Shown here: in pieces, positions 4,805 through 5,281 of the stretch
Layout of the letters: every line of letters starts with the position of its first letter
Position numbering within the stretch: the stretch's first letter is position 1
Source of the DNA: a virus
Lineage: Duplodnaviria; Heunggongvirae; Uroviricota; Caudoviricetes
Reading direction: 5' to 3' (one strand)
IMG/VR virus record: IMGVR_UViG_2698536484_000017
DNA length: 8,285 bases
Notes under the pieces: generated by a model
Seen by the model: only the letters and a program-made list of their open reading frames with translations
The model's database searches: none
Told to the model about the DNA's origin: nothing
Position numbers and translations under genes: made by a program

Positions 4805-4816
4805 TCCTCACACTCC

Positions 4817-4846
4817 ATAAACAACAAAGCCGCCCAAAAGGCGGCT
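4817..4846 (-). terminator. Putative Rho-independent terminator downstream of the lipoprotein moron, lying in the J 5' leader
   Basis: Stem AGCCGCC (4828-4834) pairs with GGCGGCT (4840-4846) around a 5-nt loop. On the minus strand the hairpin is followed by TTGTTGTTTAT. It sits 24 nt after the lipoprotein stop and just upstream of the J ribosome-binding site. Confidence 0.55.
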
Positions 4847-4870
4847 CATGAGTTACGGCAGGATTAACTA

Positions 4871-5209
4871 TTATTTACATGCATTAACACTATCAGCAAA
4901 AATTTTTGGCGTTAATGCTGGTACGCGTTCATAAAGAGTAAAACTACTGCCATTTCCTGCTTTTTTGATATCAAGCACAACATCATACCCACCCATAGCC
5001 TGTGGAACTAAAAGGCTTACCCCATTCTCAATAGGAAGGGATGTTATAGGTGTTCCATTACCAGCCCATTGTCTGGATATGCAGCCTGACAATTCATCAA
5101 TATTTTTTAATGAATTACCTTCCATTACAGGTTTTCCGGATTTTACGTAATCCAAAGATTTACATCCTGTTAAGGCAATAATCGTGCAGAATAAAATCGT
5201 TTTGTTCAT
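4871..5209 (-). CDS. Small predicted lipoprotein of unknown function (prophage moron); about 112-aa precursor
   Basis: ATG at 5209..5207 gives MNKTILFCTIIALTGCKSLDYVKSGKPV...: a short positively charged N-region, a hydrophobic core and a lipobox L-T-G-C (signal peptidase II type). Stop is TAA at 4871-4873. The gene lies in a visibly AT-rich island between I and J. The ORF track begins 4 codons earlier at a TTG, which I consider less likely than the ATG. Confidence 0.7.
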   Translation of the reverse strand: MNKTILFCTIIALTGCKSLDYVKSGKPVMEGNSLKNIDELSGCISRQWAGNGTPITSLPIENGVSLLVPQAMGGYDVVLDIKKAGNGSSFTLYERVPALTPKIFADSVNACK

Positions 5210-5214
5210 ATAGC

Positions 5215-5275
5215 TAACCAACAGAATAATTATCAGTGTTCGATATAAATATTAAATCAGTTAGAACATGAGTAA
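5215..5275 (-). promoter_or_regulatory. Candidate sigma70-type promoter region for the lipoprotein moron (weak, by-eye)
   Basis: The AT-rich stretch between the I stop (5282) and the lipoprotein start reads on the minus strand as ...TTTAAT-(16 nt)-GATAAT-(19 nt)-ATG. The -10-like GATAAT is reasonable; the -35 is poor. No clear Shine-Dalgarno motif. Confidence 0.25.
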
Positions 5276-5281
5276 ATAATA

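Follow-up and report, generated by a model that had tools for sequence, protein, structure and literature searches.

What is a gene for a small lipoprotein doing between two tail genes of a lambda-type prophage, in DNA much richer in A and T than its surroundings? The question is raised by an 8,285-nucleotide stretch of DNA from a tailed virus (Caudoviricetes; IMG/VR record IMGVR_UViG_2698536484_000017), called the window here, which holds the distal genes of a lambda-type tail operon, all on the minus strand, in the order H 3' end, M, L, K, I, small open reading frame (ORF), J. The small ORF in the gap between I and J (4871..5209, minus strand; ATG start, 112 amino acids, stop TAA at 4871-4873) is a real gene under purifying selection, and it is very probably a functional gene of the moron type belonging to phrog_914, a widespread phage family that is so far unstudied. 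As to what it does, the reading put forward here, at a rough probability of 0.4, is that an acquired cassette encodes an outer-membrane lipoprotein that would act in superinfection exclusion, with a step after adsorption as the favoured point of attack. A role in phage entry or exclusion in some form seems, on balance, probable.

The gene and its predicted product

The gap between the start of J (4804) and the stop of I (5282) measures 477 bp (4805-5281) and has a GC content of 0.363, as against 0.588 in J, 0.553 in I and 0.564 in the remaining window; the lipoprotein ORF itself stands at 0.366 (GC3 0.248) and the 72-bp spacer upstream of it at 0.236. The first-pass annotation, made from the letters alone, had described some 477 bp in the mid-30s % GC between flanks in the mid-to-high 50s, holding an ORF of about 112 codons with a textbook lipoprotein signal peptide, and the measured values (36% against 55-59%), the ORF at 4871-5209 and its L-T-G-C lipobox agree with that description. 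By an estimate from base composition, an open frame of this length would arise by chance at 36% GC with a frequency of about 2e-4 per frame. The gene is intact in 56 of the 59 prophage copies found in IMG/VR, among which 13 DNA alleles encode 7 proteins, and the most divergent pair of alleles has a pS of 0.093 and a pN of 0.004 (pN/pS 0.04). That the ORF might be a decaying or non-functional hitch-hiker could be argued from the frameshifts in the other three copies, and from the failure of tblastn searches with the window protein and a Klebsiella homologue (P0013) to match any of 50,697 deposited phage genomes, so that the enterobacterial clade is without a match among sequenced phage isolates. 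With a pN/pS this low, 95% of copies intact, and three cysteines together with several motifs conserved from Escherichia to Pseudomonas, however, the idea is scarcely credible. Prophages carrying the enterobacterial clade seem to be seldom isolated as plaque-forming phages. Only two phages, both of Pseudomonas, carry distant members of the family. Among 5426 complete E. coli genomes, 337 (~6%) contain the lipoprotein DNA (at least 95% identity), at 349 places, and many genomes of Klebsiella and Enterobacter also carry the enterobacterial clade; the database entry for the protein reads 'hypothetical protein' (WP_001332187.1), and the identical protein, occurring on at least 1000 contigs of a large collection, goes by the names 'hypothetical', 'lipoprotein' or 'phage protein'.

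The predicted protein begins with MNKTILFCTIIALTG, followed by Cys16 in the order CKS. Its positively charged n-region (M-N-K), its core (TILFCTIIA) and its lipobox (L-T-G-C16) match the pattern of a signal peptidase II substrate, that is, a charged n-region, a hydrophobic h-region and a lipobox within the first ~25 residues. As read from the sequence, the signal peptide with its lipobox covers residues 1-16 (MNKTILFCTIIALTGC; 5162..5209, minus strand), and the lipobox (5162-5173, minus strand) fits the pattern [LVI][ASTVI][GAS]C as quoted in PMC11893012. The residue at +2 is Lys, and the protein is thus without the Asp inner-membrane retention signal. Under the Lol sorting rule of E. coli, Asp at +2 means retention in the inner membrane; given Lys in that place, the mature 96-residue lipoprotein is predicted to be lipidated on Cys16 and sorted to the outer membrane. 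Two further cysteines, which the first-pass annotation thought might pair, lie at the residues it described: Cys43 (codon 5081..5083, minus strand) within a predicted helix at 37-50 and Cys111 (codon 4877..4879, minus strand) at the end of the C-terminal helix, 103-111. In an alignment of 39 diverse family members only three columns, Cys16, Cys43 and Cys111, are invariant, and Pro27, Lys35, Trp48 and Gly63 are nearly so. Such conservation fits a disulfide, and a bond between Cys43 and Cys111 in the periplasm is likely.

The protein matches phrog_914 (PHROGs v4, function unknown) over its full length (E 7.3e-33), its residues 1-112 aligning with all 118 positions of the profile, and all 39 diverse relatives and two ORFs of Pseudomonas phages also hit this family. 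That is the sole family match. In Pfam neither the window protein (E up to 1) nor any of the 39 relatives matches a family; NCBIfam likewise has none, its only match being VirB7 (E 0.08) over the signal peptide; the anti-phage defence models of PADLOC-DB v2 give 0 families at E up to 1; and sequence searches of the PDB, with the single protein and with a 39-sequence profile, return nothing beyond signal peptides. At the DNA level, Rfam yields just chance matches below threshold over 4500-5600. The earlier impression that the sequence resembled no named family thus survives homology and profile searches of Pfam, NCBIfam, PADLOC and the PDB, in which no characterised lipoprotein appears, and in the literature nothing was found on the phrog_914 lipoprotein family. 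Relatives themselves are plentiful. Homologues in other Enterobacteriaceae share 50-62% identity; a word-indexed search returned 20 relatives at 50-98% identity from Escherichia, Jejubacter, Kluyvera, Klebsiella and Enterobacter; and an exhaustive HMMER search with a 12-sequence profile (E up to 1e-3) returned 125 cluster representatives, nearly all of 105-125 amino acids. Scans of IMG/VR with three distant members (P0033, P0036, P0030) gave no relatives.

Structure prediction with AlphaFold2 and the family alignment yields a confident model (pLDDT 83.7, pTM 0.76) in which a helix, a strand, a helix, four strands and a helix follow one another to form a small alpha/beta sandwich. Against a library of viral structures the only strong match (E 1e-5, TM 0.70/0.83) is an uncharacterised protein of Pseudomonas phage phiAH14a, which is a true member of phrog_914. 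The closest known fold is that of Francisella Flpp3; the match is weak and generic, in the same score range as KA1, DUF302 and BamC-N.

The insert, its boundaries and its relatives

A moron in the Juhala/Hendrix sense (as summarised in PMC3594210) is extra DNA between genes that are adjacent in relatives, with a base composition unlike that of its surroundings, a promoter and terminator of its own and expression from the repressed prophage; the DNA between I and J matches in position and in composition. A 1.3-kb query spanning the junction finds 8778 matching places in E. coli genomes, of which only 334 include its middle part, the insert. In lambda, and in the majority of E. coli lambdoid prophages, I and J are separated by ~60 bp, in keeping with the few tens of bp that the first-pass annotation gave for lambda. 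At empty sites (three prophages and lambda) gene I ends, as it does in the window, in VVVIGR* and is followed by a spacer of ~19 bp, a GC-rich hairpin and J. Alignment with these insert-less junctions places the boundaries of the inserted DNA at about 4848-5281 (4848..5281, minus strand), where the ~19-bp spacer has been replaced by 434 bp, a net gain of ~415 bp. A direct repeat, T(T/A)ACTCATG, matching at 8 of 9 positions, marks both ends of the insert, one copy directly after the I stop (about 5260-5268) and the other directly before the hairpin (about 4848-4856); it may represent junction microhomology or a target duplication.

The hairpin itself (4827-4847; 9-bp stem with a T-rich tail in a terminator scan) has its equivalent adjoining J at insert-less junctions, including that of lambda (L091 2446-2505; L002-L004), and its stem shows compensatory changes, GCCGCC...GGCGGC here and ACCGCC...GGCGGT elsewhere. 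Since it is also found at empty sites and in lambda, it is a standing feature of the I-J junction and lies outside the insert. The terminator that the first-pass annotation had assigned to the gene as its own is accordingly present, as a terminator-like GC-rich hairpin and T-rich tail just upstream of the J start (4817..4847, minus strand), but it is shared with junctions that have no lipoprotein gene. In other genera the lipoprotein gene is followed by terminators, such as CCACCTGCGGGTGGTTTTTTT in locus L082, to which the junction hairpin bears a resemblance. The hairpin could have been left behind by a cassette since lost, or could mark a favoured site of insertion.

Where does the gene sit in other lineages? 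Its E. coli slot is between I and J. In Klebsiella, Kluyvera, Hafnia, Yersinia, several uncultivated viral genomes and the P. aeruginosa phage vB_PaeS-D14P it occurs in the K-I gap, with 50-140 nt between it and the downstream gene I (in vB_PaeS-D14P as an unannotated ORF, L102 6956-7297), and in an Enterobacter/Citrobacter/Salmonella clade it occupies the slot between T and the tape measure gene. In Pseudomonas phage phiAH14a, which has a second, displaced I-like gene (p32; Lambda_tail_I, E 3e-4), the lipoprotein gene precedes that gene by 58 nt; both lie on the repressor's strand, on the immunity/early side of the genome (L101 6956-7942). The annotation of the phiAH14a lipoprotein gene, as p33/p34, is too short. 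The gene shares the strand of its neighbours in every tail-module context and that of the adjacent I-like gene in phiAH14a; in the phage contexts scanned it is always followed by a hairpin and T-run terminator, the sequence of which is lineage-specific; and its GC content is lower than that of its flanks in 12 of 12 related loci tested (0.36-0.46 against 0.43-0.59). Not all members are viral. Shimwellia blattae has a homologue of 38% identity that is chromosomal and outside any prophage, between a YidB-family gene and ecotin (L083/L084 6001-6339), and one distant member lies within an integrase-bearing genomic island. The Shimwellia copy adjoins copC/copD/yebY, which parallels HK97 gp15 and its chromosomal YebO relatives.

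Pairwise identities of the lipoprotein, I and K in 11 loci served to compare vertical with horizontal descent. The lipoprotein diverges fastest, with a mean identity of 46.8% as against 52.8% for I and 61.3% for K. It is more conserved than the tail proteins only in the comparison of E. coli with other lineages. Within the lineage that carries the gene between K and I all three proteins diverge together (84%, 88% and 94% for lipoprotein, I and K between Kluyvera and locus L073), and there the lipoprotein gene looks like a long-standing part of the tail-tip module. The E. coli copy differs. Identities of the window's I and K to their counterparts in all the other loci are no more than 33-40%, whereas its lipoprotein is 48-59% identical to the Klebsiella/Enterobacter group; because the lipoprotein is nearer to that group than I and K are, and because it occupies a different slot, the likeliest origin of the E. 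coli copy is a small cassette transferred horizontally into a lambda-type module.

Two further arrangements concern the same region. In Yersinia prophages (L085-L087 1400-6000) and in L072 (2060-5970) the lipoprotein gene is preceded, within the K-I gap, by a further 4-5 kb of cargo, of a kind resembling immI of P22 (Arc-type repressors, Bro-N, KilA-N/ANT antirepressor-like proteins and a helix-turn-helix protein), in one case with a SocA_Panacea protein or an FtsK_gamma protein. In the Qin locus of E. coli STEC1575 (L001 5091-12055) the block J-lipoprotein-I-K-L-M is inverted relative to the other tail genes, an inversion that cuts through lom and the tape measure gene, both annotated in pieces as partial pseudogenes.

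Receptor types, transcription and a proposed role in exclusion

How might such a protein serve a prophage? On the proposal favoured here, the lipoprotein would be exported, lipidated on Cys16 and held in the inner leaflet of the outer membrane, its alpha/beta domain facing the periplasm and braced by the Cys43-Cys111 disulfide. There it would shield the lysogen or infected cell through superinfection exclusion or a block to entry, directed against lambda-like siphophages at the outer-membrane/periplasm stage, and the step most likely affected would be the one after adsorption, in which the tail-tip proteins gpI and gpH, once ejected, enter the outer membrane and form a channel. There are precedents: morons of the tail operon can encode exclusion proteins, as with HK97 gp15 (PMC3594210); temperate coliphages have lipoproteins, encoded in the structural cluster, whose expression excludes phages (PMC11893012); and Cor excludes FhuA phages (as summarised in PMC4936722 and PMC3594210).

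The most familiar version of such a role is receptor masking of the Cor or Llp kind, in which the lipoprotein would bind the periplasmic side of the phage's own outer-membrane receptor and so block adsorption of superinfecting phages and of released progeny. The location fits, for an outer-membrane-type lipoprotein is encoded beside tail tip genes, as cor and llp are (PMC4936722), and structural-cluster lipoproteins of the mEpimmI phages exclude receptor-sharing phages including lambda (PMC11893012). Whether the lipoprotein goes with one receptor-binding type was examined over the last 150 residues of J in 37 carriers with a complete J (36 IMG/VR loci and the window). One J-end type does account for 25 of the 37, but lipoproteins at least 98% identical are paired with five J-end classes in all (sizes 25, 6, 3, 2 and 1). 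Identities among the three largest classes are 41-59%, while the two smallest, unrelated to these, are 50% identical to each other; the end of lambda J forms a sixth class, 36-42% identical to the three largest. Conversely, the window's J-end type occurs at 7624 places in 3397 E. coli genomes as against 349 places for the lipoprotein, so that more than 95% of prophage copies with that J-end type are without it. The lipoprotein is thus neither restricted to nor required by one receptor-binding type. Homologues of ~50% identity in other genera stand beside J proteins of 1060 to 3367 amino acids, and the protein has neither sequence nor fold similarity to Cor or Llp. Given that a near-identical lipoprotein accompanies several J-end types, simple masking of the phage's own receptor is weakened, and it now seems rather unlikely.

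Interference after adsorption is preferred to masking because the lipoprotein is tied to no single J type and is habitually found beside gene I. In the lambda tip gpI forms a trimeric plug that contacts the C-terminus of gpH and has two hydrophobic helices proposed to enter the outer membrane on receptor binding (PMC11101478, PMC12617516). As a plug that inserts into the outer membrane, gpI is a plausible target for a lipoprotein facing the periplasm, but gpI or gpH as the specific target is a long shot. Equally speculative is the fuller scheme built on it: a receptor-independent exclusion aimed at the lambda-like injection machinery, in which the lipoprotein would capture or block gpI and/or the gpH C-terminus, its pairing with gene I from Enterobacteriaceae to Pseudomonas would reflect allele specificity or self-compatibility between lipoprotein and I, and the hairpin at empty junctions, lambda's included, would be the relic terminator of a lost cassette.

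Exclusion by a lysogen presupposes expression from the prophage, and here the evidence is divided. A terminator after the gene in all phage-borne relatives suggests a transcript outside the antiterminated late message. In the window, a promoter scan called no sigma-70-like site on the gene's strand. The AT-rich spacer between the I stop and the lipoprotein ATG (5210..5281, minus strand; 23.6% GC) has no clear Shine-Dalgarno sequence and holds only weak promoter-like sites, the best in a relaxed, hand-scored scan matching at 8 of 12 positions (for example TTTAAT-16-GATAAT, ending 19 nt before the ATG). Among four relatives scanned only that of Yersinia has a better one, a 9/12 site plus TG. Might the protein instead be a helper of the lytic cycle, made from the late transcript only, that stops progeny from injecting into debris or vesicles or modulates the envelope before lysis? 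The gene does share the strand of the late operon in tail-module contexts, no promoter was called in the window or in three of the four relatives, and in the K-I lineage, in which the gene co-diverges with I and K as a resident would, only 30-40 nt separate K from the lipoprotein gene, which leaves no room for an intergenic promoter. A strong terminator after the gene in every lineage scanned is, however, the signature of transcription that also occurs without late antitermination; the phiAH14a copy is outside the late operon altogether; and the Yersinia and L072 copies sit behind independently regulated cargo of the Arc/Ant type. A purely lytic function is for these reasons decidedly unlikely.

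A benefit to the lysogen need not involve phages at all. As a conversion factor for host fitness or virulence, comparable to Bor/Iss or Flpp3, the lipoprotein might alter the envelope in ways that affect serum resistance, immune interaction or stress tolerance. The bor gene of lambda is a precedent, encoding an outer-membrane lipoprotein on a moron (PMC3594210), and the chromosomal and island-borne relatives outside phages point in the same direction. Yet Pfam reveals no homology to Bor, the fold match to Flpp3 is of the generic kind described above, the E. coli carriers come from many hosts and sources without a pathotype pattern among the matches listed, and a repeated association with the tail tip over large evolutionary distances would not be expected of a generic factor. 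This too is an unlikely account.

Several observations weigh against the exclusion proposal itself. No convincing promoter for expression in the lysogen was found in the scans just described. Searches of Pfam, NCBIfam, PADLOC and the PDB link the phrog_914 family to no function, and homology to Cor, Llp, Bor or the PADLOC defence proteins is likewise undetectable. Adjacency to gene I could reflect permissive insertion sites, because at least two unrelated lipoprotein families (phrog_8179 and phrog_890) share the neighbourhood. Some relatives, in Shimwellia near ecotin and on the genomic island, are found outside tail modules or phages. Finally, carriers are often polylysogenic for related lambdoid prophages (1-8 places per record).

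Three other roles were considered and set aside. A component of the virion or of tail assembly would have to act in the cytoplasm, where tails assemble, whereas the lipobox signal peptide exports this protein. An immunity protein to the NlpC/P60 domain of K was discarded since K acts in cytoplasmic assembly and is not known in the virion (PMC12617516). A spanin was rejected because the gene is outside the lysis cassette and the protein is not Pro-rich.

The genes on either side complete the picture of the locus. Upstream of the insert is tail gene I (5282..5923, minus strand; Lambda_tail_I, E 1.7e-23), and downstream is the first ORF of J, the tail tip or host specificity gene (2213..4804, minus strand), which is interrupted by a tandem duplication of ~1.1 kb (window 1200-3413, minus strand; offset 1097 nt). 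The copies, at about 1200-2316 and 2297-3413, are 96.7% identical, and J is broken by the duplication into ORFs at 2213-4804 and 312-2288. Those complete genomes that match best cover ~7160-7210 bp as against the 8285-bp window and are thus without the duplication. A divergence of ~3% between the two copies points to a chimeric assembly joining two J alleles, or else to a genuine product of recombination.

The answer to the opening question has implications beyond this locus. Accessory genes of prophages help to determine which phages can infect clinical and commensal E. coli, with a bearing on phage therapy, typing and prophage ecology, and carriers of phrog_914 are also found among prophages of Klebsiella, Enterobacter, Citrobacter, Salmonella, Yersinia and Pseudomonas. 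Exclusion of lambda-like phages after adsorption, if true, would be a new route of superinfection exclusion and a handle on the poorly understood crossing of the outer membrane by gpI and gpH; a role in the envelope or in host interaction, if that is the truth, would make the protein a new lysogenic-conversion factor. A 339-bp gene of this frequency and conservation, repeatedly paired with gene I, is of interest at the bench, although it would cause a specialist little surprise.

Comparison with known envelope and moron systems

As a kind of element, a moron-encoded envelope lipoprotein in a tail operon, the gene belongs to well-known company; it is the phrog_914 family itself that is uncharacterised. 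The first-pass annotation had proposed a role of the Cor, Llp or Bor type, and although the protein is homologous to none of the three, a function like that of Cor or Llp is still a reasonable analogy. Cor (phi80/N15/T1/HK022) is similar in outline: it too is a small lipoprotein of the outer-membrane type with two further cysteines, the last in a C-terminal C-K, and its gene likewise lies on the late strand amid tail genes, with a terminator behind it. It differs in its shorter mature part (60 amino acids as against 96) and in its tie to FhuA-dependent phages, where the lipoprotein described here keeps company with several J types. Membership in the Cor family (phrog_1119) was rejected: 37 mature sequences of the family compared by hhalign with 82 mature Cor sequences give a probability of 2.5%, full-length phi80 Cor aligns with the family profile over 30 columns that comprise only the signal peptide and the first mature residues, and 2 of 39 family members touch phrog_1119 (E ~5e-4). 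The mature N-terminus (window region 5162-5130) follows a loose pattern, C-x-[SG]-x(2-4)-[VIL]-[RKE]-x(2-3)-[KE]-P-[VI], that is also seen in Cor (L090) and in phrog_890 lipoproteins (L103 p83). For this shared N-terminus hhalign gives 87-89% with the signal peptide included and nothing without it, and the likeness is probably compositional.

Llp of phage T5 is also a small, disulfide-bonded outer-membrane lipoprotein encoded beside a receptor-binding gene, and it guards against superinfection and loss of progeny; membership was rejected, as the present protein has neither sequence nor fold similarity to it (PDB 8a60 chain B). Membership in the Bor/Iss family was rejected as well, since Pfam Lambda_Bor matches neither the window protein nor the 39 relatives. 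Flpp3 (DUF3568), its closest known fold, shares 6-9% sequence identity, scores in a generic fold range and has no Pfam DUF3568 match in 39 members; its own molecular function is unclear (PMC12236611).

Other lipoproteins share the neighbourhood. The phi80 gene morF (phrog_8179; L090 16104-16637) lies in the I-J slot, and phiAH14a p83 (phrog_890, 'lipoprotein'; L103 6239-6661) lies just upstream of I. Both are unrelated to phrog_914, hhalign aligning only the signal peptide region. Counting phrog_914 itself, three lipoprotein families flank gene I. Lpp021 and Lpp010 of the mEpimmI coliphages were likewise found by their lipobox in the structural cluster of temperate coliphages, fall into several sequence types and are by experiment enough to exclude phages including lambda (PMC11893012). 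They belong to another phage group and, if the mEpimmI genomes are among the 50,697 records searched by tblastn, they are not close relatives.

A further parallel is gp15 of HK97. No sequence relationship was found (no Pfam match), gp15 being a YebO-like inner-membrane protein and not a lipoprotein, and its exclusion function has been demonstrated by experiment, whereas the lipoprotein described here is known from sequence. In other respects the two are alike. Each is a small envelope protein encoded in a lambdoid tail operon by a gene of deviating GC content with bacterial relatives outside prophages; the slot of gp15, between the tail assembly chaperone T and the tape measure gene, is the very slot of the Enterobacter/Citrobacter homologues of the lipoprotein (PMC3594210); and the block that gp15 imposes, on entry after adsorption and dependent on the tail of the incoming phage, is the mode of action favoured here.

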